From a virus (Duplodnaviria; Heunggongvirae; Uroviricota; Caudoviricetes), in IMG/VR virus record IMGVR_UViG_2698536506_000006: 24,146 nucleotides of DNA, one strand, 5' to 3'. The notes below the pieces were generated by a model that did no database searches, was not told the origin of the DNA, and saw only the letters and a list, made by a program, of their open reading frames with translations. How positions within the stretch are numbered: position 1 is the first letter of the stretch; each line of letters starts with the position of its first letter. A program made the position numbers and the translations under genes. Positions 3,648-23,212 of this stretch are shown here, in pieces.

Positions 3648-3714
3648 CCAACTAATGAAATTAATGGCGTAAACCCGCCGGGCATCCCTTTATCTAAATT
3701 CAGGAGAATTGATT

Positions 3715-3948: not shown

Positions 3949-4169
3949 TGGCTGATGCAATGGATCTCGTACAGCAGCGCGTTGAAGAAGAACGCCATAT
4001 CCGTGCTGCCCGTGCCAAAACGCCGGGCGTGTCCCGCGTGCTTTGCATTGAGTGTGAAGCGCCAATTCCGCCAGCACGCCGCCGTGCCATTCCGGGTGTG
4101 CAGCTTTGCATTACCTGTCAGGAAATCGCAGAGCTGAAAGGCAAACATTACAACGGAGGTGCTGTATGA
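3948..4169 (+). CDS. TraR/DksA-family C4 zinc-finger protein
   Basis: 73 aa with CxxC...CxxC (CIECEAPIPP...CITCQ), typical of phage TraR-like proteins. Stop overlaps the dam start (ATGA). Confidence 0.75.
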   Translation: MADAMDLVQQRVEEERHIRAARAKTPGVSRVLCIECEAPIPPARRRAIPGVQLCITCQEIAELKGKHYNGGAV

Positions 4170-5023
4170 GCACCATCCTGAAATGGGCGGGAAATAAAAC
4201 TGCCATAATGTCCGAACTGAAAAAACATCTTCCTGCTGGCCCGCGACTGGTTGAACCTTTCGCGGGTTCCTGTGCTGTGATGATGGAGACGGATTATCCC
4301 AGCTATCTGGTTGCGGATATTAATCCTGATTTAATCAACCTCTATAAAAAGGTTGCCGCTGATTGTGAATCGTTTATATCTCGCGCCAGAGTTTTATTTG
4401 AGATCGCAAACAGGGAGGTGGCTTATTACAACATAAGGCAGGAGTTTAATTACTCAACTGAAATTACTGATTTCATGAAAGCGGTATATTTCCTGTATCT
4501 CAATCGTCACGGTTACCGTGGTTTATGTCGCTATAACAAGAGCGGGCATTTCAACATTCCCTACGGTAATTATAAAAATCCGTATTTCCCTGAAAAAGAA
4601 ATTCGCGCATTTGCAGAAAAGGCCCAGCGAGCAACGTTTATCTGCGCCAGCTTTGATGAAACGCTGGCGATGTTGAAGGCGGGGGATGTGGTGTATTGCG
4701 ATCCGCCGTATGACGGTACGTTTTCCGGCTATCACACTGACGGCTTCACTGAAGATGACCAGTATCACCTGGCATCTGTTCTTGAACATCGGTCATCAGA
4801 AGGACATCCGGTCATTGTTTCTAACAGTGACACATCCCTGATCCGTTCGCTGTATCGCAATTTTACTCACCACTACATCAAGGCAAAACGCAGCATCGGT
4901 GTGGCAGCTGGCGAGGGTAAATCAGCAACAGAAATTATTGCTGTTTCCGGGCCGCGCTGCTGGGTGGGATTTGATTATTCGCGTGGCGTGGATAGTTCTG
5001 CCGTGTACGGAGTACGTGCATGA
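4166..5023 (+). CDS. dam: DNA adenine methyltransferase (Dam family, N6-adenine)
   Basis: Begins [11 protein letters not shown]. AdoMet-binding motif EPFAGSCAV and catalytic DPPY ([11 protein letters not shown]). GGAGGT RBS. Translationally coupled to the upstream and downstream genes. Confidence 0.9.
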
Positions 5024-7407: not shown

Positions 7408-7497
7408 ATAGCCACAAGGGCACGCAATTACTGCAACGAGTCAGAAGTATCTCATTGAAAGCAAAAAAGCATTTTACATCCGGAAACTTCTTCTATA

Positions 7498-7528
7498 CTG
7501 TATATATAAACAGTGGATATATATACAG
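7498..7528. promoter_or_regulatory. Inverted repeat, candidate operator or promoter element upstream of ORF 7562
   Basis: CTGTATATATA (7498-7508) and its reverse complement TATATATACAG (7518-7528) separated by 9 nt, about 35 bp upstream of an AGGAGGGA RBS. Confidence 0.35.
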
Positions 7529-7561
7529 TTTATTTATCCGGCAGTATCGATAGGAGGGAAG

Positions 7562-7750
7562 ATGCAGGACTATTTTCTGGAGTCGTTGAAGCTCCAGCGC
7601 ATTGATTTTTTTATCAAGCTTGTAGCGGCGAGTGAGTGTGATGACGAAGAAAAGCAGCTGGCGATTCAGTGGGTTTCTGAGTTAACGGATGAGCTGATGG
7701 CGAAGATTCGTGCTCATGAATACAACCGCTCAATGGATATTCCCGGTTAG
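7562..7750 (+). CDS. Hypothetical protein, 62 aa
   Basis: Strong RBS AGGAGGGA. Acidic, helical-looking small protein. Lies between gpA and cos. Confidence 0.5.
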   Translation: MQDYFLESLKLQRIDFFIKLVAASECDDEEKQLAIQWVSELTDELMAKIRAHEYNRSMDIPG

Positions 7751-7828
7751 CAGCAGGAACGTTGCTGGCGCAAGAACTGGCTTCTTACGTCAGCAAGGTT
7801 GAACAACGAGTCCAGCGAGGCGTTAGCC

Positions 7829-8095
7829 ATGGCTAAATCCAACAGCAAATTCCAGACCGTCTATGAGGGGCAGGTGCTTGAGCGTTTCGAGCCCGGTGGA
7901 TGGGTCTTGTTTCAACGCCGTTCTGAATATGGCGGTAAGTTCTGGATGGGACGAACCATGGACGATGTATTTTTGTTTGGTCCCGATCATCCGGTATCTG
8001 GAGGTGAGGCTATGAGCTTCATCATTGATTACGAGGGTGAGCAATTCAGACGGTCTTTACCCGTCGAATATACCCCACAGATACCGCTTTTCTGA
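7829..8095 (+). CDS. Hypothetical protein, about 88 aa
   Basis: ATG at 7829 with GAGG upstream; the frame is open from 7799. Followed by a terminator-like hairpin. Confidence 0.5.
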   Translation: MAKSNSKFQTVYEGQVLERFEPGGWVLFQRRSEYGGKFWMGRTMDDVFLFGPDHPVSGGEAMSFIIDYEGEQFRRSLPVEYTPQIPLF

Positions 8096-8160
8096 GAACC
8101 GGCTGAGTGCATGTCTATGCTGCATGAGATCGCATGATCGTTTGAGGATCGTTTTCGCTG

Positions 8161-8190
8161 AAGCCCGCCAGAACTGGCGGGCTTTTGGTT
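8161..8190 (+). terminator. Rho-independent terminator-like hairpin
   Basis: AAGCCCGCC / GGCGGGCTT 9-bp stem with 6-nt loop, followed by TTTTGGTT. Confidence 0.55.
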
Positions 8191-8231
8191 ATGTCATGCA
8201 GGTGCATGAAAACCGCTACATAAAGCGGGCA

Positions 8232-8250
8232 GGCGTGGCGGGGATACGAG
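8232..8250. other. Candidate cos site (cohesive-end sequence of P2/186 type)
   Basis: GGCGTGGCGGGGATACGAG followed by CGCGCGC. Closely resembles the P2/186 cohesive ends as I recall them (GGCG[A/T]GGCGGGGAAAGCA...). Lies between the A-side and Q-side of the genome as expected. Confidence 0.5.
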
Positions 8251-8297
8251 CGCGCGCCCGGCTTGCTATTTGTTCGTTGCAACATTAGTATTCCTAT

Positions 8298-8450
8298 GCT
8301 CTTTAGCGTTAGGGAACCATTGCGTTCTAGCCGGGCGATAAGCCAGGCTCTAATTTATTGCTCAGTTTAGGGTTGCGAAAGCGACGAATTCGTCGCTTTC
8401 GCTGTCTTTAGTGAAGAGCTCGGCCCGCGCAAGCGGGCCTCACAAGCGGA
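8298..8450 (+). ncRNA. Candidate retron msr/msd non-coding RNA (boundaries approximate)
   Basis: Non-coding stretch immediately upstream of a retron-type RT. Contains a perfect 28-nt palindrome (8375-8402) and a GC hairpin with GCAA loop (8422-8439). Possible promoter TTGCTA (8263-8268), 17-nt spacer, TAGTAT (8286-8291). a1/a2 repeats were not resolved by eye. Confidence 0.35.
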
Positions 8451-9392
8451 ATGTTTATGGAAATTTTATCGGCTGTTAGCAAAGAACTTGGAGTAAACGT
8501 TAACGAGCTGAGGCGGTTATCGAGTGTTGCGCCTAAAAAATATAAAGTCTACACAATTCCTAAACGACAAAGTGGATTCAGGCTTATTGCTCAACCAACG
8601 AGTGAGATAAAGCGAATTCAGCGTGAGGTTGTGAAAATTTTGGCTTCCAAGCTCATCGTGCACGATGCAGCGAAAGCTTATAAAGTTTCTATAGGAATTA
8701 AGGACAATGCCAAAATCCATATGGCAAACTCCTATCTTTTAAAAATGGATTTTCAGAATTTCTTCAATAAAATTAAACCGGCTCTTTTATTTGATAAACT
8801 TCGCTCTCAAGGGGTTGTTTTGTCAGGTGAGGATAAGGAGTTTTTAGAAGGGATTCTTTTCTGGAAACCAGGAAAAAAAAGAAGTATCACTCTCGTGTTG
8901 AGCGTTGGGGCGCCATCCTCACCTTTTGTTAGTAATTTTGTAATGTATGATTTTGATAATTATATAAACAATTGGTGCTCTGTTAGGAATATTTCATATT
9001 CAAGGTATGCTGATGATATTACATTTTCTACAGATGAGAAGAATATACTTTTTGAGGTCCCGAAAGTAGTAAGGTTTGCATTATCATTATGTGCTAAAGG
9101 TATATCTTTAAATGAATCTAAAACTGTATTCACGTCTAAAGCTCATAATAGACATGTGACAGGTGTGACATTAACAGTTGATGGGGAGCTTTCGCTCGGT
9201 AGGCAAAAGAAGAGAATGATTTCTTCTCTGCTGCATAAATATACACTAGGCTTACTGGCTAAAGAGGATGTTATAAGCCTTAAGGGCTTTGTTGGACATG
9301 CTTTATATATCGAGCCTAAATTTATTGCTAGAATGAAAATTAAATATGGGAAAGAAGTAATACATGCGCTTTTTTCTGAGGAGGGGATGTGA
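8451..9392 (+). CDS. Retron-type reverse transcriptase
   Basis: RT motifs: GAPSSPFVSN (motif B-like), RYADDITFS (YADD catalytic motif) and the retron-characteristic VTG motif (NRHVTGVTLTVDG). AT-rich. Alternative start at ATG 8457. Confidence 0.85.
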   Translation: MFMEILSAVSKELGVNVNELRRLSSVAPKKYKVYTIPKRQSGFRLIAQPTSEIKRIQREVVKILASKLIVHDAAKAYKVSIGIKDNAKIHMANSYLLKMDFQNFFNKIKPALLFDKLRSQGVVLSGEDKEFLEGILFWKPGKKRSITLVLSVGAPSSPFVSNFVMYDFDNYINNWCSVRNISYSRYADDITFSTDEKNILFEVPKVVRFALSLCAKGISLNESKTVFTSKAHNRHVTGVTLTVDGELSLGRQKKRMISSLLHKYTLGLLAKEDVISLKGFVGHALYIEPKFIARMKIKYGKEVIHALFSEEGM

Positions 9393-11044
9393 ACTCAAAG
9401 TATACTAAATCACCAAATGACATTCGTACATTATTGCAGTCTTATGTAAATAAAACTGAAGATGGTTTAGAATTCAGTAAAGAGAACATTCCTGAAGAGG
9501 TATCTTCGTTATATAAGGAAATTGAAGATGCACCATTTCTTATAAATAAAGTCGCCATCTCAGACTATAAAAGAGTCAGGGATCTTTTTGTTTCGATCGA
9601 CAAAAAACTAACAGTGTTTGTTGGTGATAATGGTTACGGTAAAACCACCATTCTTGAAGCATTATTTATTGCTTTAAGTTGGTTTAGAGCAAATGTTCAA
9701 AAAGAAGATAAAAGCGGTTTTCATATAAAAGATGGTGATATTAACAATCATAATGATGTCAATTATGCTGCAATAACTGCGCAGTTTAAACTTAAAAAAA
9801 TAACGTCAAATATTTTAGTTACACGTGTTAAAGATGGAGTATCACAAAAAAGAAATAATGAGTTGCTTTCTATAAAAGAGATGGCGTCATTCTTTCGTGT
9901 TGTGAATTCATATTATGAAGATGTAAGCCTTCCGGTTCTTGCATATTACTCTGTATCAAGATCTTCAAATGGTGCAGGCATAGATAATAAAAGAAATGTT
10001 AATAATTCTGTGCGTCGATGGACTAAGCTTGATGCTTATGAAGATATAGAGTTTGATCGCCGTGACTTCGGTGAGTTTTTAAATTGGTTCATATTTGTTA
10101 ATAATAAGGCATTGTCTGAGGAGTCCTTGATACCAGAAAAACAAAGAGATCAACTTGTTATTGATATCTCAAAGCTTAAGGTATCTTTGGAGGTTTTGAA
10201 ATCTTTCAGTGATGTTGATAGAAGAACATTAATAGATATAGAAACACAAATTGCTAATAAAGAGTTGATTCTTAATACGTTACCGTCTACACCAAATGGT
10301 TTAAGTCGTTCAAAAGATATTGTTGCTAATGTTAAAAGGGCAATAATTAATTTCCTTCCTGAAATTAGCTCTGTTGAACTTCAATATACTGAAAATGAAG
10401 TTCGTTTAGTTTTAGCAAAAGATGATTTACTATTAGATGCCCAGCAACTCTCTCAAGGGGAGAAAACTATACTTACATTAGTGGGGGATTTAACAAGACG
10501 CTTGGTGTTGCTGAATCCTAAGTTAAATAATCCACTTCAAGGGAAAGGTATAGTATTAATTGATGAAGTTGATCTTCATTTGCACCCAAGCTGGCAGCAA
10601 AACATTATTGAGAAATTGCAGCATACATTTCCTAACGTACAATTCATAATTACCACTCATAGCCCTCAAATTGTATCGACAGTTCCAAGTAAATGCTTGC
10701 GCATCCTTGAGGAAATAAAAAACCCTTCGACAGGCATGAAGGAATTACGTGTGCTTTTACCATCATCTCAAACAAAAGGTACTAAGAATTCGTACGCTTT
10801 GCTTTATGGGATGAAAACAGATCCTGTACCTAATGTAAAAGAAGTCGCATGGCTGAGCACTTATAAGAAATTTATTGAAAACAGGCAGCAGGATTCGGAG
10901 GAAGCCATAATGATAAGGAAAAAGTTAGACAAGCATTATGGAATTGATCACCCATTATTACTTGAGTGTGATGGTATAATTCGTGTATTAAAGCTAAAAG
11001 ACAAAGTGCGGGGTGAGTCTGGCAATAAGGAATCTAAACAATGA
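9389..11044 (+). CDS. Retron-associated ATPase (PtuA/Septu-like, ABC/OLD-type)
   Basis: Walker A GDNGYGKTT, Walker B VLIDEVDLHLH, H-loop-like ITTHSPQ. GTG start overlapping the RT stop (ATGTGA), preceded by GAGGAGGGG. Confidence 0.8.
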   Translation: MNSKYTKSPNDIRTLLQSYVNKTEDGLEFSKENIPEEVSSLYKEIEDAPFLINKVAISDYKRVRDLFVSIDKKLTVFVGDNGYGKTTILEALFIALSWFRANVQKEDKSGFHIKDGDINNHNDVNYAAITAQFKLKKITSNILVTRVKDGVSQKRNNELLSIKEMASFFRVVNSYYEDVSLPVLAYYSVSRSSNGAGIDNKRNVNNSVRRWTKLDAYEDIEFDRRDFGEFLNWFIFVNNKALSEESLIPEKQRDQLVIDISKLKVSLEVLKSFSDVDRRTLIDIETQIANKELILNTLPSTPNGLSRSKDIVANVKRAIINFLPEISSVELQYTENEVRLVLAKDDLLLDAQQLSQGEKTILTLVGDLTRRLVLLNPKLNNPLQGKGIVLIDEVDLHLHPSWQQNIIEKLQHTFPNVQFIITTHSPQIVSTVPSKCLRILEEIKNPSTGMKELRVLLPSSQTKGTKNSYALLYGMKTDPVPNVKEVAWLSTYKKFIENRQQDSEEAIMIRKKLDKHYGIDHPLLLECDGIIRVLKLKDKVRGESGNKESKQ

Positions 11045-11709
11045 AATTCCTTGCTAGAAATCCCATTGGTCCAGGTGTTTTAGCCGAGTTTGACTACAAT
11101 ATTCATGACTGGAATGCTTTTAAACGGCGACATAAACAATTAGTCTGGGTCGGTTTAGTTGAAATGCAAGGGAAGAGATGTGCGTATTGTGAGCGGAAAA
11201 TAGATATTCACAATAGTGATGATAAGCATATCGAGCATTTTTTGCGTAGAAGCCAGCATAGGCATTTAACATTTGAATGGTCAAACTTGTTCGGCTCTTG
11301 TGCTGAAAATAATCACTGCGGTTTTTACAAAGATGAACAGAGCTATCAGGAGCAAGACCTAATCAAGGCCGATAATGATGACCCCACACATTTTTTCCAT
11401 TTCGCTATTAATGGAAATATGGATATTCGTCCGGGGTTATCGCGAAACGATGAGCGAAGAGCTGAGGTTACTATAAGGGTTTTTAACCTGAATGGTGAAA
11501 AGGGCGGCGTGAAAACTGAGCGCATCAATGCAATATCAGAAACATGGTCATTGATAGAGAGATTTGTTTCTACAGCTGAAGAGTTCATCGAAGAGGGACT
11601 TTATGATGATAGTGTCCGTAACGAACTTCGAGACGAGTATTATAAAGAAATAGACCCCAGACCATTCTCTACTGCGTTGCGTGATGTTTTTGATACGATG
11701 CTTCCTTAA
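11041..11709 (+). CDS. Retron-associated HNH endonuclease (PtuB-like)
   Basis: HNH-type motif CAYCE...DDKHIEHF...N...SCAENNHC. Start overlaps the ATPase stop (ATGA). Confidence 0.8.
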   Translation: MKFLARNPIGPGVLAEFDYNIHDWNAFKRRHKQLVWVGLVEMQGKRCAYCERKIDIHNSDDKHIEHFLRRSQHRHLTFEWSNLFGSCAENNHCGFYKDEQSYQEQDLIKADNDDPTHFFHFAINGNMDIRPGLSRNDERRAEVTIRVFNLNGEKGGVKTERINAISETWSLIERFVSTAEEFIEEGLYDDSVRNELRDEYYKEIDPRPFSTALRDVFDTMLP

Positions 11710-11741
11710 ATTAAAGAGTCTCATTTGAGACTCTTTAATTT
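11708..11741. terminator. Bidirectional terminator between the convergent retron operon and portal gene
   Basis: Near-perfect inverted repeat AAATTAAAGAGTCTCA / TGAGACTCTTTAATTT with a 2-nt loop, between the HNH stop and the portal stop. Confidence 0.6.
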
Positions 11742-12766
11742 TACATCGAATATTCTTTAAAATTTATTATATCGTCATTTAACCATCGGTTGATTTCACA
11801 GATTCTTTGCTGTAAGGGGATTACTTCATTTCTTACAAAAACCTTACTAGCCTTTTCCACATCCCCAAACCCGCCAACATTACTCGGCATAATCCCCATC
11901 ATCTGAGGCGGCACACGATGCGCCGCCATCATGTCATCCCGGCTCACGTTCTTGATATTCAAAAACTCATCCTTCGCCGCGACTTCTGACAACGGGATGA
12001 TCTGAAGCCCGTCCTTTTTGCCGTTAGGCGAGTACATAAACAGGTTGCGGAAGTTACCTGGGCCTTTGGCGCTTTTCATCGCGTTGCGGAGGTTGTTCAC
12101 ATCCTCCTGGTTTTGTGCGGCGTCGGTCATGTACATGATGAAGCCTGCATGACTGCCGTTAATGTAATACTTCCGGCGGAACAGCGTGGCGGACTCGTTG
12201 AGCAGGGCTGACGGAATGGCAGAAAGATAACCGGGCAGGCCGTAGATCTCCTGGTTGATGTCCGGTTCCATCAGATGAAAAATGCTGCCTTTCGTGAACT
12301 GATACGGCTGGGTTGTCATACCGTATTGCACAAACCAGTAGGTATCCAGGTCTAACCCGCGTCGTGTGTATTTTGCCAGGGCAGGTTCAAAGGCGATAAT
12401 TTCACCGAAGCGGTTCGTGCGTTTCTCCAGGTAGGCGTTACCAAATACCAGATAGTCCTGCACAAAACGTGAAAAAGCCTGCTGGCTGAGCAGCGGGTGA
12501 GGGATGTAGGTACTGGTCAGAATGTTGCATTTCACCGCAATTGGTGAACTGTGATGCACGGCGGCGCGGAAGGTGCGCGCCAGTCCGTCAAAGCTTACTG
12601 GCGGCTCATACCAGCGATCTGTCTGTACGCATTCCACATAGTCCAGTAATTCGCGGCGGTCCAGAACAGGAACGGGATCACCGAAGCTGAATGCTTCGGC
12701 TGAAGTTTGTTTTTTATACTGGATCTGATTCGTCGCCGCAGCGCGGTTCTTCTTACTCTTTCCCAT
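11741..12766 (-). CDS. Q: Portal protein (P2 gpQ-like)
   Basis: About 341 aa, the size and position of P2 Q. ATG at 12766-12764 overlaps the terminase stop (ATGA arrangement on the minus strand). Confidence 0.9.
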   Translation of the reverse strand: MGKSKKNRAAATNQIQYKKQTSAEAFSFGDPVPVLDRRELLDYVECVQTDRWYEPPVSFDGLARTFRAAVHHSSPIAVKCNILTSTYIPHPLLSQQAFSRFVQDYLVFGNAYLEKRTNRFGEIIAFEPALAKYTRRGLDLDTYWFVQYGMTTQPYQFTKGSIFHLMEPDINQEIYGLPGYLSAIPSALLNESATLFRRKYYINGSHAGFIMYMTDAAQNQEDVNNLRNAMKSAKGPGNFRNLFMYSPNGKKDGLQIIPLSEVAAKDEFLNIKNVSRDDMMAAHRVPPQMMGIMPSNVGGFGDVEKASKVFVRNEVIPLQQRICEINRWLNDDIINFKEYSM

Positions 12767-14532
12767 CAAAAAATCTCCACAATATTGCTGGTATTGGCGG
12801 ACTCGCCCTGCAGCGGTTCGTTAAACAGTGCGTGCATTGTTGCCCAGGCCAGATCGGCATGGCTGGCTTCTTCGCTGCGGCTGGCTTCATAGGTCGGGCG
12901 GTTGCCGCTGGCGGTGGTGGCACGGCGGATTGCCATGAATGACTGCGCAATGTCGGTGTGTCCGGCGTCAAACTCCAGACGGCGGTGGCTGATAATGTCG
13001 TAGGCCTTGAGTACCAGGGCGTTTTTAACATTGGGGTTATAGACAAACTCCCGGACGGCAGGAAAAAACGCTTTCACGTTCTCATAAACCCCGTGACCGA
13101 CGCCTGTCGAGTCGATGCCGATATAGGTCACGTTGTACTGCTCGGTCAGTTTTTTGATTGCATCAGCTTGGGCGCGGAAGTCCATCCCGCGCCACTGGTG
13201 ACGCTCAAGAATGCGAAACTTACCGCCTGGCACGGCTGGCGGTGCCACCACCACGCATCCGGCGCTGTCGCCGTTCTGCGTACCTTTTGCCGGGTCATAA
13301 CCGATCCACACCTCGCGCCAGCCAAACGGGCGCAGGGCCAGTGCATGAAAGTCGGTCCAGACTTCCCAACTGTCCACCATGCATGCCTGCAGCTCGCTGA
13401 GCGGGAACACGGACGCGAGATCGTCCACAAACTCGCACATCAGCAGGTTCTGGTATTCGTCCGGGCTGTACTCCATGCGCAACTGGTCGAGGTCGAACAG
13501 GTTACAGCCGCCGCGCACCGCATCTTCCACGGTGACTATCTGGCGGTATTGCCCGTCTGCGCACAGCAGGCCGGGGGCCAAGTTGCTGTGGGACAGGTCG
13601 ATGTCCACCTTGTCGGCTTTGTTGCGTCCACGGTTGAACAGCGCACCGGACCAGAATGGATAAGCACTGTGGGTCAGACTGGATGGCGTGGAAAAATAGG
13701 TCTGCCGCCATTTTTTGTGAATAGCCATACCGGAAGCCACTTTGCGCAGCTCCTGGAATTTCGGGATCCAGAAATATTCATCCAGATACAGGTTGCCGTG
13801 GTAACTCTGGGCCGTGCGGGCATTGGTGCCGAGGAAGTAAAGCGTGGCCCCGTTAGGAAGCACCATCGGATCGCCTTTCAGCTCCACCTCCACTTCTTTG
13901 GCAAAGTCGATGATGTACTGTTTAAAGACGTGGGCCTGAGCCTTGCTGGCAGAAAGGAAAATCTGGTTACGCCCGGTCAGCAGGGCGTCAATCAGGGCTT
14001 CACGGGCAAAGTAAAAGGTCGCGCCGATCTGGCGTGACTTCAGCAGGTTGCGGATGCGGTTGGTTTTTCCGGCTTCCCACCAGTGGCGCTGGTAGTTGAA
14101 CATGGAGGAATGGAAGATTTCTTCCAGCTTCTCAATCTGTTCATCGGTGAAAACATTCTTTTCCGGCTGACGGCGCGGGCCTTTGTTGCGGTTGGCGACG
14201 TTTGGGTTTAAGTCGGCTTCGTTGCCGCCATTGTTAAACTTGCCGATCCGCGCGTGGCGTTCCGACTGGCGCGCCAGCAGGTCAATCTCTTTGAAATCTT
14301 TCCCTTCTTTGTGCTCCTTCATAATGAGCTGGCAGTAGCGTGCGGCGGTGGTGAGCTGCATCTGATCCAGCGGCCCATAGTCACCCCACTTGTCGCGTTT
14401 TTTCCAGCTGTGAACGGTTGCAACTTTCTCGCCCAGCATTTCAGCAATGCGGGCTACGCGGTATCCCTGAAAGTACAGCAGCATGGCCTGCCGACGGGGA
14501 TCGAGATCTGCGGGTGTCAGTGTGGTGTTCAT
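12766..14532 (-). CDS. P: Terminase large (ATPase) subunit (P2 gpP-like)
   Basis: 588 aa, divergent from the scaffold gene as in P2 (P/O divergent late promoters). Confidence 0.9.
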   Translation of the reverse strand: MNTTLTPADLDPRRQAMLLYFQGYRVARIAEMLGEKVATVHSWKKRDKWGDYGPLDQMQLTTAARYCQLIMKEHKEGKDFKEIDLLARQSERHARIGKFNNGGNEADLNPNVANRNKGPRRQPEKNVFTDEQIEKLEEIFHSSMFNYQRHWWEAGKTNRIRNLLKSRQIGATFYFAREALIDALLTGRNQIFLSASKAQAHVFKQYIIDFAKEVEVELKGDPMVLPNGATLYFLGTNARTAQSYHGNLYLDEYFWIPKFQELRKVASGMAIHKKWRQTYFSTPSSLTHSAYPFWSGALFNRGRNKADKVDIDLSHSNLAPGLLCADGQYRQIVTVEDAVRGGCNLFDLDQLRMEYSPDEYQNLLMCEFVDDLASVFPLSELQACMVDSWEVWTDFHALALRPFGWREVWIGYDPAKGTQNGDSAGCVVVAPPAVPGGKFRILERHQWRGMDFRAQADAIKKLTEQYNVTYIGIDSTGVGHGVYENVKAFFPAVREFVYNPNVKNALVLKAYDIISHRRLEFDAGHTDIAQSFMAIRRATTASGNRPTYEASRSEEASHADLAWATMHALFNEPLQGESANTSNIVEIF

Positions 14533-14578
14533 GGCACAAACCTACAGCCTTGAATGAAGGCTTTCCCCGCCTGCGGTT

Positions 14579-14596
14579 TGTGTGGTTGTCGGTACA
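14579..14596. promoter_or_regulatory. Candidate Ogr/B activator binding site (TGT-N12-ACA) in the P/O divergent late promoter region
   Basis: TGT at 14579-14581, 12-nt spacer, ACA at 14594-14596, in the 142-bp intergenic region between the P and O starts. Matches the late-promoter activator site consensus of P2-like phages. Confidence 0.4.
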
Positions 14597-14674
14597 AATA
14601 CCGCGCATTGTTTCACTGCCCCCATCACCGCAACCATAAGGCCCCAGTAAGTTTTTTCTAACGGAGCACGGCTC

Positions 14675-15508
14675 ATGACAGTGAAAGCAAAGCGTTTTCG
14701 CATCGGGGTGGAAGGTGCCACCACCGACGGACGCGAAATCCAGCGTGAATGGCTGGAACAGATGGCAGCCAGCTACAACCCGGCGGTGTATACCGCGCTG
14801 ATTAACCTTGAGCACATCAAGTCTTATCTGCCGGACAGCACCTTTAACCGCTACGGCAAGGTGACGGCGCTGTTTGCTGAAGAAATCACGGAAGGTCCGC
14901 TGGCAGGCAAGATGGCATTGTATGCCGACGTTGAGCCAACGGAGTCCCTGGTGGAACTGGTGAAAAAAGGCCAGAAATTATTCACCTCTATGGAAGTCAG
15001 CCCTAAGTTCGCTGATACGGGCAAAGCCTACCTGGTTGGACTGGCCGCCACTGATGATCCCGCCAGTCTGGGTACGGAAATGCTGACATTCAGCGCCAGT
15101 GCAGCCCATAACCCGCTGGCAAACCGCAAGCAGAATCCCGCCAATCTTTTTACCGCTGCAGAGGAAACAGTGATCGAACTGGAAGAAGTCCAGGACGAAA
15201 AACCATCCCTGTTTGCCCGTGTCACGGCGCTGTTCACCAAAAAAGAGCAGTCCGATGATGCCCGGTTCTCTGATGTGCATAAGGCCGTGGAGCTGGTCGC
15301 CACTGAGCAGCAAAACCTGAGTGCGCGCACCGAAAAATCCCTGTCTGAACAGGAAGAACGCCTGTCTGAGCTGGAGACAGCCCTGCAGACACAGTTGACC
15401 GCCTTTAACGAACTGGTGGACAAGCTGAGCCATGAAGACAGCCGCCAGGACTACCGCCAGCGTGCAACAGGCGGTAACGCCCCCGCTGACACTCTGACCA
15501 ATTGCTGA
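14675..15508 (+). CDS. O: Capsid scaffolding protein (P2 gpO-like)
   Basis: 277 aa, directly upstream of the major capsid gene; size and order as in P2. Confidence 0.85.
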   Translation: MTVKAKRFRIGVEGATTDGREIQREWLEQMAASYNPAVYTALINLEHIKSYLPDSTFNRYGKVTALFAEEITEGPLAGKMALYADVEPTESLVELVKKGQKLFTSMEVSPKFADTGKAYLVGLAATDDPASLGTEMLTFSASAAHNPLANRKQNPANLFTAAEETVIELEEVQDEKPSLFARVTALFTKKEQSDDARFSDVHKAVELVATEQQNLSARTEKSLSEQEERLSELETALQTQLTAFNELVDKLSHEDSRQDYRQRATGGNAPADTLTNC

Positions 15509-15524
15509 TGGAGCACAAAACCTG

Positions 15525-16583
15525 ATGAAGAAGAATACCCGCTTTGCTTTTAACGCTTACCTGCAGCAGCTGGCGCGTCTGAACGGTGTGGCAGTTGAAG
15601 AACTGTCCAGCAAGTTCACCGTGGAGCCGTCTGTACAGCAGACGCTGGAAGACCAGATCCAGCAGTCCGCCGCTTTCCTGACGCTGATTAACGTCACGCC
15701 AGTGACTGAGCAGTCCGGTCAGCTGCTGGGGTTGGGTGTTGGTAGCACCATTGCCGGAACCACTGACACCACCGCGAAAGAGCGTGAACCTGTCGATCCT
15801 ACGCTGATGGTCGATGTGGAATACAAATGCGAGCATACCAACTTTGACACGGTGCTGACCTACGCGAAGCTGGACCTGTGGGCGAAATTTCAGGATTTCC
15901 AGGTGCGTATCCGTGACGCCATCGTGAAACGTCAGGCACTGGACCGCATCATGATCGGCTTTAACGGCGTGAAGCGTGCGAAAACCTCCAACCGTAGTGA
16001 AAACCCGCTGCTGCAGGATGTGAACAAAGGCTGGCTGCAGAAAATCCGTGAGGATGCACCGGATCACGTCATGGGCAGCACCACCACAGGCGGTGAAACC
16101 ACACCGGGCGCGGTGAAAGTCGGTAAAGGTGGCGAATATGCCAACCTGGACGCCGTGGTGATGGATGCCGTCAATGAGCTTATCGACGTGGTCTACCAGG
16201 ACGATGACGATCTGGTGGTGATTTGCGGTCGTGAACTGTTGTCTGACAAGTATTTCCCACTGGTCAACAAAGAGCAGGAAAACAGTGAAAAACTCGCTGC
16301 CGATATGATCATCAGTCAGAAACGCATGGGTGGCCTGCAGGCCGTGCGTGCGCCGTTCTTCCCGCCGAATGCACTGCTGATCACCCGGCTGGATAACTTG
16401 TCCATCTACTGGCAGGAAGACACCCGCCGCCGTTCAGTTATCAACAACCCGAAACGTGACCGGATTGAAAACTTTGAATCCGTTAATGAAGCCTATGTGG
16501 TTGAGGACTACCGCTGCGCCGCACTGGTGGAAAACATCCAGATTGGTGATTTCAGCGCCGCCGCAGCCGAAACCGGAGCGTAA
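15525..16583 (+). CDS. N: Major capsid protein (P2 gpN-like)
   Basis: 352 aa. N-terminal pattern (..TRF.FNAYL...A.LNG......KFTVEPSV.QTL) matches P2 gpN as recalled. Confidence 0.9.
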   Translation: MKKNTRFAFNAYLQQLARLNGVAVEELSSKFTVEPSVQQTLEDQIQQSAAFLTLINVTPVTEQSGQLLGLGVGSTIAGTTDTTAKEREPVDPTLMVDVEYKCEHTNFDTVLTYAKLDLWAKFQDFQVRIRDAIVKRQALDRIMIGFNGVKRAKTSNRSENPLLQDVNKGWLQKIREDAPDHVMGSTTTGGETTPGAVKVGKGGEYANLDAVVMDAVNELIDVVYQDDDDLVVICGRELLSDKYFPLVNKEQENSEKLAADMIISQKRMGGLQAVRAPFFPPNALLITRLDNLSIYWQEDTRRRSVINNPKRDRIENFESVNEAYVVEDYRCAALVENIQIGDFSAAAAETGA

Positions 16584-16586
16584 TCC

Positions 16587-19403
16587 ATGAGCCTGAGTCC
16601 CGCACGGCAGCATCGCCTGCGCGTTCAGGCTGAACAGGCCGCCCGCGAGGGCGGCAGTGTTCGCCACGCATCGGGCTATGACCTGATGCTGCTGCAACTG
16701 GCGGAAGACCGCCGCCGTCTCAAGGGCGTTCAGTCCACGGTCAAAAAAGCGGAAATCAAGGTGGAGCTGCTGCCGAAGTACGCCGCCTGGGCAGAGGGTG
16801 TCCTGGCTGCCGGAGGCGCTCAACAGGATGACGTGCTGATGTACGTGATGCTGTGGCGCATTGATGCCGGAGATTATGCCGGGGCGCTGGAGATCGGGCG
16901 TCACGCCCTGCGTCATGGCTGGGTGATGCCGTTGGGTAACCGCAACGTGCAGACCGTGCTGGCAGAGGAAATGGCAGACGCGGCGCAGAGCGCAATGCTT
17001 GCCGCCACCGGCTTTGATGCTGATCTGTTGCTGCAGACGCTGGAGCTGACAGACGGTCTGGATATGCCGGACCAGTCACGGGCACGTCTGCATAAAGCGA
17101 TTGGCGCTGTCTGGACCGACGGCATTGGTAATACGTCAGGCGTCATTCCCGGCAAAACCATTACGGAGCGACAGGCAGCAGAAGGGCTGATCTCCAACGT
17201 GCTGCGTGTCGAGCGGGCGCTGGAAAGGTGTGTGAAGCAACAGCCGCCGCAGAAGGTGTATGACGCTGCGGTGTCGTTTGCCTTCAACGTGGGAACGGGC
17301 AATGCCTGCAGTTCCACGCTGGTGAAATTACTCAATCAGCGGCGCTGGGCAGATGCGTGCCGACAGTTGCCGCGCTGGGTTTATGTGAAAGGTGTTTTTA
17401 ATCAGGGGCTGGATAACAGGCCAACCGCCGCGCAGGCAAAGTTATTCAGTCAGGCCAAAACACGAGTACAGGAACTTCAGCAGACTTATAACGGCTTGTT
17501 GGGGGCGGTCCAGAGACAACGTCAGGCACTTAAAGAATCAGGGATTGATACCAGACAACTCAGTAGTGCCCAGCGAGAACTTAAAAAAAATGCTGAAGAA
17601 ACAAGGCAGGCACTGGAGGGCCAGCAAAAAGCACTTAAACGTCTGGGTGAACAACAGGCACGGATGAACGCTGCCAGAGAACAATACTCAAGACGGCTTG
17701 AAGTGCGCGATCGCATCGCAGGAGCCGGAGCCACTACCACGGCTGCAGGGCTGGCAATGGGTGCGCCAGTGATGGCGGCAGTAAAAAGCTATACCAGCAT
17801 GGAAGATGCCATGAAAGGTGTGGCAAAGCAGGTCAATGGTCTGCGTGACGATAATGGCAACCGCACTGCACGTTTTTATGAAATGCAGGATGCCATCAAG
17901 GCTGCCAGCGAACAGTTGCCGATGGAAAACGGTGCGGTGGACTTCGCTGCACTGGTTGAAGGTGGTGCGCGCATGAACGTCGCAAACCCTGACGACAGCT
18001 GGAAAGACCAGAAACGTGACCTGCTGGCCTTCGCCAGTACGGCAGCAAAGGCGGCAACAGCCTTTGAGCTGCCAGCGGATGAACTGTCAGAAAGTCTGGG
18101 GAAAATCGCCCAGCTCTACAAAATACCTACGGCAGCAGTAACTCGAACCAGCAGCGCGTTGTCCTGGCTGGCTGGCGCACCACTGGCACTGCTGCGACGC
18201 GGGCTTGCTTCATCGGGCAACGCAGCGGGTTTACTTACTGCGCCGTTGTCGTCTTTGCGCCGCACGGCATCACTGACGGGGAATGTCCTGAAAACTGTAG
18301 CAGGTGTGCCGGTTGCACTGTTGCGGTCTGGATTATCCGGTTTACGTGCTGTTGCTGTGATGTTTATGAATCCACTGGCAGCACTACGCGGTGGACTGGC
18401 TGCCGCAGGCGCGGTGCTGCGAGTGCTGGCATCCGGTCCGCTGGCGATGCTGCGCGTTGCTCTGTATGCCGTATCTGGTCTGTTAGGTGCTCTGCTCAGT
18501 CCGATAGGTCTTGTGGTTACTGCACTGGCAGGCGTGGCGCTGGTTGTCTGGAAATACTGGCAACCCATCACCGCATTTCTCGGTGGCGTGGTGGAAGGAT
18601 TCAAAGCGGCGGCAGGTCCCATCAGTGCTGCATTCGAACCACTTAAGCCTGTGTTTCAGTGGATTGGCGACAAAGTGCAGGCGCTGTGGGGCTGGTTTAC
18701 TGATCTGCTGACGCCTGTTAAGTCGACCTCTGCCGAACTGCAGAGCGCAGCGGCAATGGGGCGACGATTCGGGGAGGCACTGGCGGAAGGGCTGAATATG
18801 GTCATGCATCCGCTGGACTCCCTGAAATCCGGCGTTTCCTGGTTGCTGGAGAAACTCGGCATTGTCAGTAAAGAGGCTGCAAAGGCGAAACTGCCGGAAA
18901 GCGTGACGCGTCAGCAACCTGCGACGGTGAATGCAGACGGTAAAGTGATGATGCCATCAGGTGGTTTTCCATCATGGGGATATGGTTTTGCGGGGATGTA
19001 TGACAGCGGTGGGTATATCCCGCGCGGGCAGTTTGGCATTGTCGGTGAAAACGGGCCTGAAATTGTCAACGGCCCGGCAAACGTGACCAGCCGGAGAAAT
19101 ACAGCTGCACTGGCTGCCGTTGTTGCCGGAATGATGGGTGTTGCTGCCGCGCCAGTAGAGCTTCCACCGTTGCACCCTTTGGCATTTCCCGCGAAAGGCG
19201 GTGAAGCGATGGTGAGTCGCGCAGCCACTGTGCCGCCCGTTCAACGGATTGAGGCACCGACGCAGATCATCATCCAGACGCAGCCAGGACAAAGTGCGCA
19301 GGATATTGCGCGGGAGGTGGCACGCCAGCTTGATGAACGTGAACGCAGGCTGAAGGCAAAAGCCAGGAGTAACTACAGCGATCAGGGGGGATACGACGCA
19401 TGA
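16587..19403 (+). CDS. Chimeric 938-aa ORF: gpM-like N-terminus (about aa 1-170), lysozyme-like C-terminal segment (about aa 175-280), then tail tape-measure protein gpT-like (about aa 290-938)
   Basis: N-terminus has gpM-like features (...AQQDDVLMYVMLWRIDAGDYAGALEIGRHALRHG...). Middle has GH24 phage-lysozyme C-terminal motifs (VYDAAVSFAFNVGTGNACSSTLVKLLNQRRWADACRQLPRWVY). The remainder is coiled-coil plus Ala/Leu/Gly-rich hydrophobic repeats typical of tape-measure proteins, ending just before gpU. Junctions approximately at nt 17080-17110 and 17400-17455. Confidence 0.7.
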   Translation: MSLSPARQHRLRVQAEQAAREGGSVRHASGYDLMLLQLAEDRRRLKGVQSTVKKAEIKVELLPKYAAWAEGVLAAGGAQQDDVLMYVMLWRIDAGDYAGALEIGRHALRHGWVMPLGNRNVQTVLAEEMADAAQSAMLAATGFDADLLLQTLELTDGLDMPDQSRARLHKAIGAVWTDGIGNTSGVIPGKTITERQAAEGLISNVLRVERALERCVKQQPPQKVYDAAVSFAFNVGTGNACSSTLVKLLNQRRWADACRQLPRWVYVKGVFNQGLDNRPTAAQAKLFSQAKTRVQELQQTYNGLLGAVQRQRQALKESGIDTRQLSSAQRELKKNAEETRQALEGQQKALKRLGEQQARMNAAREQYSRRLEVRDRIAGAGATTTAAGLAMGAPVMAAVKSYTSMEDAMKGVAKQVNGLRDDNGNRTARFYEMQDAIKAASEQLPMENGAVDFAALVEGGARMNVANPDDSWKDQKRDLLAFASTAAKAATAFELPADELSESLGKIAQLYKIPTAAVTRTSSALSWLAGAPLALLRRGLASSGNAAGLLTAPLSSLRRTASLTGNVLKTVAGVPVALLRSGLSGLRAVAVMFMNPLAALRGGLAAAGAVLRVLASGPLAMLRVALYAVSGLLGALLSPIGLVVTALAGVALVVWKYWQPITAFLGGVVEGFKAAAGPISAAFEPLKPVFQWIGDKVQALWGWFTDLLTPVKSTSAELQSAAAMGRRFGEALAEGLNMVMHPLDSLKSGVSWLLEKLGIVSKEAAKAKLPESVTRQQPATVNADGKVMMPSGGFPSWGYGFAGMYDSGGYIPRGQFGIVGENGPEIVNGPANVTSRRNTAALAAVVAGMMGVAAAPVELPPLHPLAFPAKGGEAMVSRAATVPPVQRIEAPTQIIIQTQPGQSAQDIAREVARQLDERERRLKAKARSNYSDQGGYDA

Positions 19404-19885
19404 TGATGGTGCTGGGATTGTACGTGTTTATGCTGCGCACCGTGCCGTATCAGGAACTGCAGTATCAACGCAGCTGGCGACATGCGGCTAACAACCGGGT
19501 AAATCGACGTCCGTCCACGCAGTTTCTGGGACCGGACAACGACATGCTGACACTTTCCGGTGTTCTTATGCCGGAGATAACAGGCGGCAGGCTGTCGTTG
19601 CTGGCACTGGAACAGATGGCAGAACAGGGGAAAGCATGGCCTCTGATTGAAGGCAGCGGCACGATTTACGGCATGTATGTGATTGAGGGACTGAATCAGA
19701 CTAAAACGGAGTTTTTCCGCGACGGTATGCCGCGCCGGATTGAGTTCACCCTGTCGCTCAAACGGGTGGATGAATCCCTGTCCGATATGTTCGGTGATCT
19801 CAGTTCGCAGCTGAATAATCTGCAGGACACGGCAACATCTGCATTAAGCGATATCAGTAAAACGGTGGGAGGGCTGCTGTCGTGA
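19400..19885 (+). CDS. U: Tail protein gpU-like
   Basis: 161 aa immediately after the tape-measure region with ATGA overlap; size and order as in P2 (T-U-D). Confidence 0.8.
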   Translation: MMMVLGLYVFMLRTVPYQELQYQRSWRHAANNRVNRRPSTQFLGPDNDMLTLSGVLMPEITGGRLSLLALEQMAEQGKAWPLIEGSGTIYGMYVIEGLNQTKTEFFRDGMPRRIEFTLSLKRVDESLSDMFGDLSSQLNNLQDTATSALSDISKTVGGLLS

Positions 19886-20982
19886 ATTTCAGCTCTGAAC
19901 TGCTTAACAAAGGCAACAAAACTCCCGCATTCAGCATCAGTATTGAGGGCAGGGATATCACCACTGTGCTGGACAACCGCCTGATGGGGCTTACGCTGAC
20001 GGACAATCGGGGCTTTGAAGCGGACCAGCTTGATCTGGAGCTGGACGACGCCGATGGAAAAATCGTGCTGCCGCGCCGTGGTGCGGTCATTACGCTGGCG
20101 CTGGGCTGGAAGGGGCAGCCGCTTTTCCCGAAAGGGGCATTCACGGTGGACGAGATTGAACACACTGGCGCACCGGACCGCCTGACTATCCGGGCGCGAA
20201 GTGCTGATTTTCGGGAAACGCTGAATACCCGCCGTGAAAAATCGTGGCACAAGACCACCGTCGGGGAAGTGGTGAAGGAAATAGCCTCGCGGCACAAGCT
20301 GAAGATGGCACTGGGTAAAGACCTGTCGGATAAGCTCGTAGAGCATATAGACCAGACTAATGAGAGTGACGGCAGTTTTCTGATGCGGCTGGCGCGACAG
20401 TACGGTGCCATCGCGTCGGTGAAAAATGGCAATCTGTTATTCATCCGGCAGGGGCAGGGCAAAAGCGCCACTGGTAAACCACTGCCGGTGATCACTATCA
20501 CACGCAAGGACGGCGACAGTCACCGCTTTACCCTGGCAGATCGCGGAGCCTACACGGGAGTAATTGCCAGCTGGTTGCATACCCGCGAACCCGCGAAGAA
20601 AGAAAGCACCACGGTGAAGCGTAAGCGCAGGACTAAGAAGCAGAAGAAAGAGCCGGAAGCGAAGCAGGGCGATTACCTGGTGGGTACGGATGAAAACGTG
20701 CTGGTACTTAATCGCACTTATGCCAACCGGAGCAACGCCGAACGAGCGGCGAAAATGCAGTGGGAACGCCTGCAACGCGGCGTTGCGTCATTCTCGTTAC
20801 AACTGGCGGAAGGGCGGGCAGATCTCTACACGGAAATGCCTGTGAAAGTCAGTGGCTTTAAACAGCCGATAGATGATGCGGAATGGACCATTACCACCCT
20901 GACGCATTCCGTTAGCCCGGATAACGGTTTTACGACCAGTCTTGAACTTGAAGTGAGGATTGATGATTTCGAAATGGAATGA
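19882..20982 (+). CDS. D: Tail protein gpD-like
   Basis: 366 aa following U with overlapping stop/start; order as in P2. Confidence 0.8.
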   Translation: MNFSSELLNKGNKTPAFSISIEGRDITTVLDNRLMGLTLTDNRGFEADQLDLELDDADGKIVLPRRGAVITLALGWKGQPLFPKGAFTVDEIEHTGAPDRLTIRARSADFRETLNTRREKSWHKTTVGEVVKEIASRHKLKMALGKDLSDKLVEHIDQTNESDGSFLMRLARQYGAIASVKNGNLLFIRQGQGKSATGKPLPVITITRKDGDSHRFTLADRGAYTGVIASWLHTREPAKKESTTVKRKRRTKKQKKEPEAKQGDYLVGTDENVLVLNRTYANRSNAERAAKMQWERLQRGVASFSLQLAEGRADLYTEMPVKVSGFKQPIDDAEWTITTLTHSVSPDNGFTTSLELEVRIDDFEME

Positions 20983-21072
20983 TTCTTCGCAATGGAGAAC
21001 TTTTAAGTTTGCAAAATGGAATAATGCGGTATCATTATTGTGAATTTAGCAAAAATGGGGAGAACTCGAAAA

Positions 21073-21291
21073 ATGATGATTTGCCCACTGTGTGGAAGTG
21101 CCGCCCATACTCGCAGCAGTTTTCAGGTATCTTCATTGACCAAAGAGCGTTACAACCAGTGCCAGAACATTAACTGCAGCCATACTTTTGTTACCCATGA
21201 AACTTTTGTTCGTTCGATTGCAACGCCAAAAGAGTCAAATCCGGTTCAGCCGCATCCAATGAAATCAGGACAGGTGGCGCTCTCTCTTTGA
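21073..21291 (+). CDS. ogr: Ogr/B/Delta-family zinc-finger late transcription activator
   Basis: CPLCGSAAH...YNQCQNINCSHTF four-Cys zinc finger closely matching the P2 Ogr pattern (CPLC...H.CQN.NC). Rightmost phage gene, as in P2. Start ambiguous (21040 GTG, 21073 or 21076 ATG). Confidence 0.8.
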   Translation: MMICPLCGSAAHTRSSFQVSSLTKERYNQCQNINCSHTFVTHETFVRSIATPKESNPVQPHPMKSGQVALSL

Positions 21292-21370
21292 CGCTGCCGC
21301 CATTTTGTCGCCATCGTTAAAAAACAGTGCTTCTAACATCATGATTTTAAACAGCTTAAATTTCAGGCAA

Positions 21371-21414
21371 CAAAAAACCCATCAACCTTGAACCGAAATG
21401 GCGGGGTTGATGGG
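21371..21414 (-). terminator. Rho-independent terminator, probably for ybjL
   Basis: 10-bp stem CCCATCAACC / GGTTGATGGG (21378-21387 and 21405-21414); on the minus strand it is followed by TTTTTTG. About 110 nt downstream of the ybjL stop. Confidence 0.45.
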
Positions 21415-21526
21415 CTCCACAAAATGGGGACATCAAAGAAAAGCAGTGGCACTAATTAAGACTGATGCCCTGCGGAAAAGTTCTGCGGTTGTGCAAAAAA
21501 ATTTCATTTTCAGGGCAACTTCAGTT

Positions 21527-23212
21527 TTATCCTAATCCTGGCCATACCATGACGATGATTGTCCCTGCCAGCGTCAGCAGGACGTTGGCGATTGCATAGG
21601 TGCCCGCATAGCCCAGCGCCGGGATGTTACTGCGAGCTGTATCACTGATGATCTCCATTGCCGGCGCGCAGGTACGTGCGCCCATCATTGCGCCGAACAA
21701 CAGCGCGCGGTTCATTCGCAATACATAAGCACCGAACAAGAAACAGATAACCACGGGCACCAGACTGACAATCAATCCGGCAATCAACATCTGACCGCCA
21801 ATCGCGCCCAGGCCGTTATTAATACCGCTACCGGCGCTCAGACCAACGCCTGCCATAAACACCATCAAGCCGAACTCTTTCACCATGCTTAATGCACCCT
21901 GCGGAATGTAACCGAAGGTCGGGTGGTTAGCACGCATAAAGCCCAGCATAATTCCGGCGAATAACAACCCGGCAGCGTTCCCCATGCCGAAACTGAATGT
22001 GCTGAACTGGAAGGTGATCATCCCGATCATCAGCCCAATAACAAAGAAGGCGCAGAATGCCAGCAGGTCAGTGACCTGGCTGTGAATCGAGATAAAGCCG
22101 ATGCGATCGGCGATGGTTTTTACGCGGCGGGCATCGCCGCTGACTTGTAAAACGTCACCTTTGTTAAGCACGACGTTGTCATCTATCGGCATCTCAATCT
22201 GGCTACGAATGACGCGGTTAAGGAAGCAACCGTGATCGGTCAACTTCAGTTGTGCGAGACGTTTACCTACAGCGTTATGGTTTTTAACGACCACTTCTTC
22301 AGTGACGATACGCATGTCGAGAAGGTCACGATCGAAAACTTCTTTACCGTTACGGAAGCTGGGATCGAGTCGGGCATGGGCGTCGGGATAGCCTACCAAC
22401 GCTATTTCATCGCCCATTTGTAGCACGGCATCACCGTCTGGATTTGCCAGAATCCCGTTACGTCGAATACGTTCAATGTAGCAGCCGGTTTGTCGATAAA
22501 TACCCAGTTCACGCAGATTTTTGCCGTCGGTCCAGGCCACCAGTTCCGGGCCGACGCGATAGGCGCGGATCACCGGTAAATAAACCTTACGGTTGGCATC
22601 AGTGTCCAGGCCACGTTCGCGGGCGATTTGCTGGGCGCTGGTCTGTAAGTCCTGATGCTGCAATTTCGGCAAGTAACGCGCACCAACAATCAAACTCACC
22701 AGACCGATTAAATAGGTTAAGGCATACCCGAGGCTCAGATTATCCAGTGCCAGTGAGAGCTGCCTGCTTTCCATGCCGGAATGACGCAGTGTATCGCCAG
22801 CACCGACCAGAACCGGTGTCGACGTCATAGAGCCTGCTAACATACCGGCCGTCAGGCCAATATCCCAGCCAAACAGCTTACCTAACCCTAAGGCGATCAC
22901 CAGCGCACTGCCAACCATCACCAGTGCTAACATTAGGTAATTTTTCCCATCGCGAAAAAAAATGGAAAAAAAGTTCGGTCCGGCTTCGACCCCGACGCAG
23001 AAAATAAACAGCATAAAGCCAAGATTAAGCGCATCGGTGTTAATGCTGAAATGTTGTTGGCCTAATAACAGCGATACGACTAAAACGCCAATGGAATTAC
23101 CCAGTTGGATCGAACCAAGTCGTAACTTTCCGAGACATAGCCCAAGCGCGAGGACCACAAATAATAACAGAATGTAATTCCCATTTAACAATTCGGCGAC
23201 GTTTATATTCAC
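21527..23212 (-). CDS. ybjL: Putative transport protein YbjL (AAE-family transporter)
   Basis: 561 aa, multi-pass membrane protein recognised as E. coli YbjL by sequence and by the neighbouring ybjM and grxA. Confidence 0.9.

Follow-up and report, generated by a model that had tools for sequence, protein, structure and literature searches.

The window analysed here (the whole stretch of 24,146 nucleotides from IMG/VR virus record IMGVR_UViG_2698536506_000006) carries a P2-like (Peduoviridae) prophage, and within it a single open reading frame (ORF) of 938 codons which is the subject of this report. The ORF is located at 16587..19403 (+), starts with ATG and ends in a stop codon that shares bases with the start codon of the next gene, a gpU homologue (19400). 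Pfam showed a Phage_term_smal domain (PF05944) at residues 35-163 (2.8e-39) covering the complete profile (positions 1-130 of 130), followed by a Phage_lysozyme domain at residues 170-278 (1.6e-29, profile positions 12-121 of 125). With PHROGs, the hits were terminase small subunit at residues 3-179, endolysin at residues 172-347 and tail length tape measure at residues 277-938.

The nearest intact phage in the collections, Escherichia phage Cartapus (NC_070909), is fully annotated and was used as the reference, and the junctions were placed by nucleotide alignment of the window to this genome. Four collinear blocks of the window matched Cartapus at 95.5-98% identity: portal to gpM codon 175 (window 11805-17111, Cartapus 942-6248), endolysin codons 53-156 (17108-17417, Cartapus 7495-7804), T codons 87-326 (17414-18130, Cartapus 18103-18819) and T codon 601 to the end of D (18128-20978, Cartapus 19645-22495). 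The ORF is accordingly composed of gpM codons 1-175 of 216 at 16587..17111 (+), which are collinear with Cartapus 5724-6248 at 95.9% identity, an endolysin fragment of residues ~53/54-156 of 171 at 17112..17417 (+), a first tape-measure segment with T residues ~87/88-326 at 17418..18130 (+) and a second one with T residues ~601/602-1025, including the natural C-terminus and stop, at 18131..19403 (+). At the first junction, J1 (17108-17111, +), Cartapus 6248 is joined to 7495 across a microhomology of 4 bp (TGTC) with a loss of 1250 bp. J2 (17414-17417, +) joins 7804 to 18103 across TAAC (4 bp) with a loss of 10302 bp, and J3 (18128-18130, +) joins 18819 to 19645 across TAC (3 bp) with an in-frame loss of 828 bp within T. 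The total loss compared to Cartapus is 12.4 kb and the reading frame stays open across all three junctions.

As annotated in Cartapus, the stretch lost at J1 encodes the C-terminus of gpM, L, X, the holin and endolysin codons 1-53. The stretch lost at J2 encodes the C-terminus of the endolysin, the spanins, R, S, V, W, J, I, H, G, the fibre invertase, sheath, tube, E/E+E' and codons 1-86 of T. T is short of 361 codons in all (residues 1-86 and 327-601). No counterpart of Cartapus 6249-7494, 7805-18102 or 18820-19644 was found anywhere in the window, and the alignment showed none of L, X, holin, spanins, R, S, V, W, J, I, H, G, sheath, tube or E elsewhere in it. The initial annotation had described a composite of gpM, lysozyme and tape measure ending right before gpU, and this is borne out by Pfam, PHROGs and the ORF coordinates. 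The alignment to Cartapus placed the breakpoints between separate collinear blocks, and the predicted junction zones at 17080-17110 and 17400-17455 proved essentially right. The deletion of the lysis and tail modules was confirmed by the Cartapus stretches without a match, and preservation of the frame holds for J1 and J2 and also for J3. The number of deletions is three and not two as first proposed, since J3 inside the tape-measure part had been overlooked.

The gpM part is without 41 C-terminal residues (216 aa in close relatives), and its Pfam domain is nonetheless complete. The intact homologue of the endolysin aligned with P1 Lyz (1XJT/1XJU) over 156 residues with an E value of 3e-26, including the E-G-C-x6-C-x5-T region. 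The endolysin region deleted at J1, MNPSIVKRCLVGAVLAIAATLPG...DYEGCRLQPYQCSAGV, comprises the hydrophobic N-terminus and the E-G-C...C motif, and the fragment left in the chimera is without E41, C43 and C50 of the intact homologue, with T56 alone kept. The GH24 catalytic triad of Glu-(8 aa)-Asp/Cys-(5 aa)-Thr was not found in the chimera, and the roles of these Glu, Cys and Thr residues in the endolysin are presumed to be those in P1 Lyz. Both the N-terminal hydrophobic export segment (MNPSIVKRCLVGAVLAIAATLPG...) and the holin gene fall within the J1 deletion. Because the N-terminal segment, the Glu and both Cys lie in this deletion, the endolysin fragment is predicted to be neither exportable nor catalytic. 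The tape-measure part is discontinuous, and the tube, the sheath and the chaperones E/E+E' are absent. Judged from the sequence, neither the gpM, the lysozyme nor the tape-measure part of the chimera would be able to do its original job.

The 938-aa ORF is best explained as a chimeric pseudogene, a scar of prophage decay in a disabled, non-lytic P2-like prophage that still carries a retron, and a probability of roughly 0.88 is assigned to this reading. A P2-like (Peduoviridae, Elveevirus-like) prophage next to rybB/ybjL would have lost the 12.4 kb through three deletions, each of them joining sequences that share just 3-4 bp, that is, by short-homology illegitimate recombination. The underlying event may have been end joining of broken DNA or replication template switching. 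The deletions would have removed the whole lysis cassette, head completion and all tail genes but part of T together with U and D, and with all three junctions remaining in frame by chance, gene finders would report one 938-aa protein. Transcription of the ORF, if any, would come from an Ogr-dependent late promoter upstream of O. J1 was seen without J2 and J3 in other loci and proteins and therefore the three junctions were not necessarily produced in one event. The segments retained between jumps were 310 and 717 bp in the window and 44 and 305 bp in other remnants, and such short segments would also fit serial template switching. The proposal that the prophage is non-lytic and forms no particles follows from the gene content, with head completion, tail and lysis genes missing.

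For comparison of the breakpoints, the junctions of other remnants (loci L001, L004-L010, L012, L015 and L016) and about 40 gpM-fusion proteins were mapped onto Cartapus coordinates. J1, J2 and J3 of the window all fall at re-used sites. Position 6246 in M was the left end of at least 7 junctions, with partners at K7495, 8317, X6966, T19116, T20655, U21289 and D21745, and position ~6270 in M was the left end of at least 11 junctions. In strain WL297, at a different chromosomal locus (ssrA), ~6270 instead formed a right end. Positions 7804, 19645, 19688, ~19990 and 21745 had two or three partners each (two for 19645 and for 19688). At positions 7496, 17789 and 18818 the role differed between strains, each being a left end in one and a right end in another, and one position serving as both suggests double-strand breaks at fixed sites. 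Among 9 junctions from the window and five complete genomes, 5 end pairs coincided within 3 nt compared to 0.06 expected, and the 18 DNA-verified junctions produced 13 coincident end pairs compared to 0.19 expected. The observed coincidences were reached in 0 of 200000 simulations for both junction sets. In a less biased check on complete genomes, with clonal copies not collapsed, the M stretch around 6246/6270 was broken in 5 of 977 prophages and the T stretch around 19645/19688 (L002 19545-19744; window ~18030-18230) in 21 of 1005 (about 2%), compared to 0 of 985 for a control 200-nt stretch of M. All three of the broken M stretches that were examined break at those sites. No description of recurrent breakpoints in P2-like prophages was found in the literature searched.

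J1 was present in 8 protein variants, of which six were M::K proteins of 291/292 aa with the natural endolysin C-terminus, one had 279 aa and one 333 aa (90% cluster). The 291-aa M::K proteins P0002-P0009 share J1, and so do the 279-aa and 333-aa members, which end at other junctions placed at the J2 site. In locus L004 (10522-10525), J1 was found at identical nucleotides, but the surrounding sequence has diverged from the window, with a synonymous divergence (pS) of 0.05 in the M part and 0.21 in the K part. Single-nucleotide polymorphisms between L004 and the window lie within 25 bp on both sides of J1, and 23 of the differences are synonymous and 1 is non-synonymous. These results suggest, as far as the sequences allow, that the 1250-bp deletion at J1 arose more than once rather than in one old event.

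The same chromosomal site carries a full-size prophage in 34 complete genomes and differently deleted remnants of the same phage type in many other E. coli strains. The deletions run from spanin to E/T in EC71, from M to T in LH10-b-1, from M to the spanin region and from W to T in 38A23CPO011, from L to T in FDN-11, from holin to T in CFSAN061772, and from J to H to T in 2017.04.02CC. Several draft assemblies also hold differently deleted remnants at this site, and the gene pieces in remnants were annotated as pseudogenes by the NCBI pipeline. The ratio of non-synonymous to synonymous divergence (pN/pS) of the retained segments was 0.00-0.15 against all comparators (0.03-0.13 against other phages), even where the partner copy was plainly dead, with the exception of a value of 0.81 that rests on 7 differences in an 87-codon piece of T. 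With low pN/pS in every segment, dead partners included, the divergence was therefore inherited from functional phages and predates inactivation. On this sequence evidence the remnants appear to be young, and the picture is one of recent decay and not of long-term maintenance. J2 and J3 were restricted to one near-clonal set of assemblies.

When junctions in remnants were found regardless of frame, 0 of ~8 were in frame, and frame preservation does not count as evidence of selection. The excess of in-frame gpM fusions in the protein database arises only from the clustering of out-of-frame fusions into groups with short tails. The three in-frame junctions of the window look like chance plus ascertainment, a 1-in-27 accident noticed for its long ORF. 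Selection for an open frame was rejected as unsupported, as the frame-blind remnant junctions were out of frame. Other in-frame chimeras were observed as well: sheath::T of 398 aa (L004 14839-16035), M::K(14 aa)::invertase of 247 aa (L010 10001-10744), E::U of 121 aa (L010 12965-13330), M::D of 433 aa (L009 10001-11302) and M::T of 261 aa (L012 10001-10786). Fused ORFs of considerable length thus arise regularly as prophages of this family decay.

Several points weigh against the reading of the ORF as a product of chance decay. The breakpoints are non-random and coincide with those of independent remnants, which makes random illegitimate recombination an incomplete description of the process. 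The prior for three in-frame junctions in one ORF is about 1/27, and the differences between the window and L004 in M and K could also fit purifying selection on M::K. In addition, the chimera and the prophage were judged from sequence. The first of these points leads to another mechanism, in which deletions occur at preferred sites of breakage or switching through a nuclease, a topoisomerase, a nickase or a replication pause with template switch. The same junctions would then form repeatedly, and the product would still be a scar. This mechanism is placed just short of an even chance: positions re-used with different partners, coincidences far above expectation, the difference between the control stretch and the M and T stretches in complete genomes, and J1 on two diverged backgrounds all argue for it, whereas no common feature (motif, hairpin, Chi, att core or cos) was found at the sites, the choice of several loci via gpM-fusion proteins favours breaks in M, microhomology leaves an uncertainty of 1-6 nt in each breakpoint, and the broken records may include clonal copies. 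Among the causes tried, DNA hairpins at the breakpoints were not unusual (z-scores -0.3 to 0.7), and Chi-limited RecBCD resection was rejected as there is no Chi in Cartapus. A search for a shared recognition sequence within 12 or 30 nt produced a best k-mer p of about 3e-4 before correction for 136-2080 tests, and a weak position-specific G-N-T-G / C-C signal was explained by partners selected for microhomology to the M site. Action of the integrase on pseudo-att sites was unsupported, with similarity to the att core reaching a z of at most 1.6, and so was action of the terminase on pseudo-cos sites, with no resemblance of the breakpoints to cos. The M hot spots showed no similarity to anything in gene A, and a putative P2 ori sequence was absent. 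A tentative reading, given slightly less confidence than the preferred-site mechanism in general, is that E. coli P2-like prophages contain a small set of exactly placed fragile sites (M 6246 and 6270, K 7496 and 7804, E 17789, T 18818, 19645, 19688 and 19990, D 21745) at which breaks or switches recur, with the ends of any two sites joined by 1-6 bp of homology, and that inactivation of the prophage would thus be partly deterministic. The chimera would be one outcome, its J1 having formed more than once, and the agent could be a nuclease or nickase of the host or of a mobile element, a topoisomerase or a replication barrier.

The remaining alternatives concern what the ORF and the element are. 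An assembly artefact, with the missing genes present in the real genome, had been raised in the initial annotation and is rejected here with hardly any residual doubt. The identical 938-aa protein was called on 7 contigs from separate assemblies; the one contig inspected, L003 from an independent sequencing run, showed 99.98% identity over 15.8 kb and the same flanking host genes. The sequence also has three NCBI accessions (OAC16356.1, SQM32321.1 and SQM73051.1), one IMG/VR contig carries J1, J2 and J3, k-mer graph collapse cannot make junctions with 3-4 bp of homology, and analogous junctions are present in finished genomes. Nothing was found in favour of an artefact, yet J1, J2 and J3 were each absent from 5426 complete E. 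coli genomes, and therefore the full structure is confined to one narrow lineage. J1 was also not found in the metagenome collection. Domestication, in which the 938-aa fusion or the 291-aa M::K first step would be a selected gene that interferes, for example, with the terminase of incoming P2-like phages, is very unlikely. The open frame through three junctions, the M::K fusions with an identical junction in at least 8 sequence variants, the nearly all synonymous differences from L004 and the complete gpM domain would fit such a gene, but pN/pS is equally low in all segments against all phages, including genes dead in the partner, and J2 and J3 are limited to a single lineage. Moreover, the partners joined to gpM at its two sites number at least 18, are unrelated and lie both in frame and out of it, as expected from a mutational and not a selective cause, and a gene located in the late operon should be silent in the lysogen. 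The term domesticated, used in the initial annotation, is therefore unsupported, given one near-clonal lineage for J2 and J3 and an almost purely synonymous divergence that was inherited. It is similarly improbable that the element is a tail-less, satellite-like derivative which still makes or fills capsids and depends for tails, gpM, gpL and lysis on a P2-like helper in the same cell. The cos site, gpA, integrase, repressor, portal, large terminase, scaffold, capsid and ogr are all intact, the same gene set is kept by many independent remnants, and helpers are often present, the median number of matching places being 2 in E. coli genomes that match at all. Against this, the sampled remnants were found by similarity to the window or to gpM, which largely accounts for their head genes. 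The small terminase is cut short and there is no head-completion gene, so that the packaging module of capsid-forming satellites (small and large terminase, head-tail adaptors) is incomplete in the window, with gpL absent. The element of about 21 kb is roughly two thirds of the 33-kb Cartapus genome, and a P2-size head might not package it. There was also no sign of horizontal spread, as the 7 contigs are near-identical and in the same chromosomal context. A chimeric pseudogene left by decay thus remains the preferred reading of the ORF.

The rest of the prophage is collinear with Cartapus and shows the hallmark set and order of P2-like phages (int-C-cox/cII...A-cos-Q-P / O-N-M...T-U-D-ogr). 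Pfam families identified in the window included Phage_portal, Terminase_6, Phage_GPO_N, Phage_cap_P2, Phage_term_smal, Phage_P2_GpU, Phage_GPD, Ogr_Delta, Phage_GPA, Phage_CI_repr and Phage_integrase. The retained genes and sites are a CI-type repressor, cII, Dam methylase, gpA, cos, portal, large terminase, scaffold, capsid and integrase; alignment, Pfam and PADLOC together confirmed that regulators, Dam and the retron are still carried, and gpA with them. Upstream of the chimera, the portal gene Q was located at 11741-12769 (-), the large terminase gene P at 12766-14532 (-), the scaffold gene O at 14675-15508 (+) and the capsid gene N at 15525-16583 (+). Directly 3' of the chimera, the homologues of gpU (19400-19885, +) and gpD (19882-20982, +) are intact ORFs and the sole intact tail genes left, followed by an intact ORF for an ogr/delta-type late activator at 21073..21291 (+). 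A TGT-N12-ACA dyad was found at 14579-14596 in the P/O intergenic region upstream of O, which we take to be the kind of site bound by Ogr at P2 late promoters. If the dyad marks an Ogr-dependent promoter, the chimera would be part of the late transcript and would be expected to be silent in a lysogen.

The element spans from the integrase at the left edge of the window to a 22-bp att core, CGCTGCCGCCATTTTGTCGCCA, at 21292-21313, which lies right after the ogr stop and ~55 bp from the gene for the small RNA RybB (21369-21447, -), the host flank being formed by this gene and ybjL. A 22-bp direct repeat bounds the element at the same locus in strain EC71; one copy corresponds to window 21292-21313 and the left copy lies beyond the window. 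The cos region at 8107-8257 (+) is homologous to that of Cartapus. Beside it, a retron was identified with its msr at 8298-8366 (+; Rfam 55.1 bits, gathering score 52), reverse transcriptase at 8451-9392 (+; PADLOC RT_I-A, 3.4e-131), PtuA-like ATPase at 9389-11044 (+; PADLOC PtuA/ATPase_I-A, 2.7e-181 and 1.8e-155) and PtuB-like HNH protein at 11041-11709 (+; PADLOC PtuB/HNH_I-A, 6.9e-114 and 2.5e-55). By its gene content, this type I-A retron is complete and apparently intact. The position next to cos is a known defence hot spot of P2 (bioRxiv 10.1101/2021.01.21.427644; PMC13586616). The cargo next to cos differed in remnants at the same chromosomal site and included RES/HNH, AIPR, DprA with PRTase, HipA/HIRAN, GmrSD and OLD-like genes. 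Finally, window 3024-3305 (after cII) and 7094-8106 (between gpA and cos) had no match or one of ~77% to Cartapus, and the region between gpA and cos contains small ORFs without a Pfam match; these stretches are probably variable accessory genes.

The 938-aa ORF is an ordinary decay product of a known kind which is already in public databases under wrong names, as 'putative phage tail tape measure protein' or 'phage terminase, endonuclease small subunit M', with no pseudogene flag. It matters mainly for annotation, where the ORF needs to be marked as a pseudogene chimera and the prophage as defective. The retron beside cos would then be a defence system left behind in an element that neither moves nor lyses its host, in line with current ideas on chromosomal fixation of defence cargo. 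The recurrence of breakpoints across independent remnants is the only part worth follow-up. If true, the decay of a very common prophage family would run through a few re-used breakpoints and not through random deletions, which would give a handle on a DNA-breaking or template-switching process in E. coli and make remnant types predictable.

Compared to known systems, the element is closest to Cartapus (Peduoviridae, Elveevirus), with 95.5-98% identity over portal to gpM, the endolysin piece, the T pieces, U and D, and 96% over cII to gpA. Cartapus differs in having the 12.4 kb, another integrase and attachment site and other cos-adjacent cargo, and it has no retron. The undeleted endolysin of a Cartapus-type phage resembles the signal-anchor-release endolysins of the P1 Lyz type (1XJT/1XJU) in the alignment over 156 residues, whereas the fragment in the chimera begins past the Glu/Cys part of E-G-C-x6-C-x5-T, has no hydrophobic N-terminus and has the Thr alone left. 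Satellites of the capsid-forming phage-inducible chromosomal island (cf-PICI) type likewise keep capsid, scaffold, portal, large terminase, cos, replication and integration genes and have no tail or lysis genes; in contrast, the element in the window appears as a recent deletion derivative with a truncated small terminase, no head completion, tail leftovers and no independent spreading lineage. The junctions resemble those of short-homology illegitimate recombination in E. coli (alternative end joining, replication slippage and multi-step template switching of the microhomology-mediated break-induced replication type, PMC2621351) in their 1-6 bp of microhomology and in the collinear short segments between jumps. 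Textbook short-homology recombination predicts scattered, non-recurrent endpoints, whereas the endpoints here recur within 3 nt in independent strains. Prophage decay in general was treated by Bobay et al. 2014, as cited in bioRxiv 10.1101/2021.01.21.427644, and incomplete P2-like elements that keep defence genes were described in Nucleic Acids Res 2026 gkag898 (PMC13586616). Like these defective ('cryptic', 'grounded') P2-like prophages, the element shows loss or pseudogenisation of mobility and morphogenesis genes, has its cos-proximal defence cargo intact and is one of many differently deleted remnants at one site. That survey (PMC13586616) reported no obvious pattern in which core genes are pseudogenised among defective P2-like elements, whereas the breakpoints of the remnants compared here are re-used and the scars in the window read as a single long ORF.

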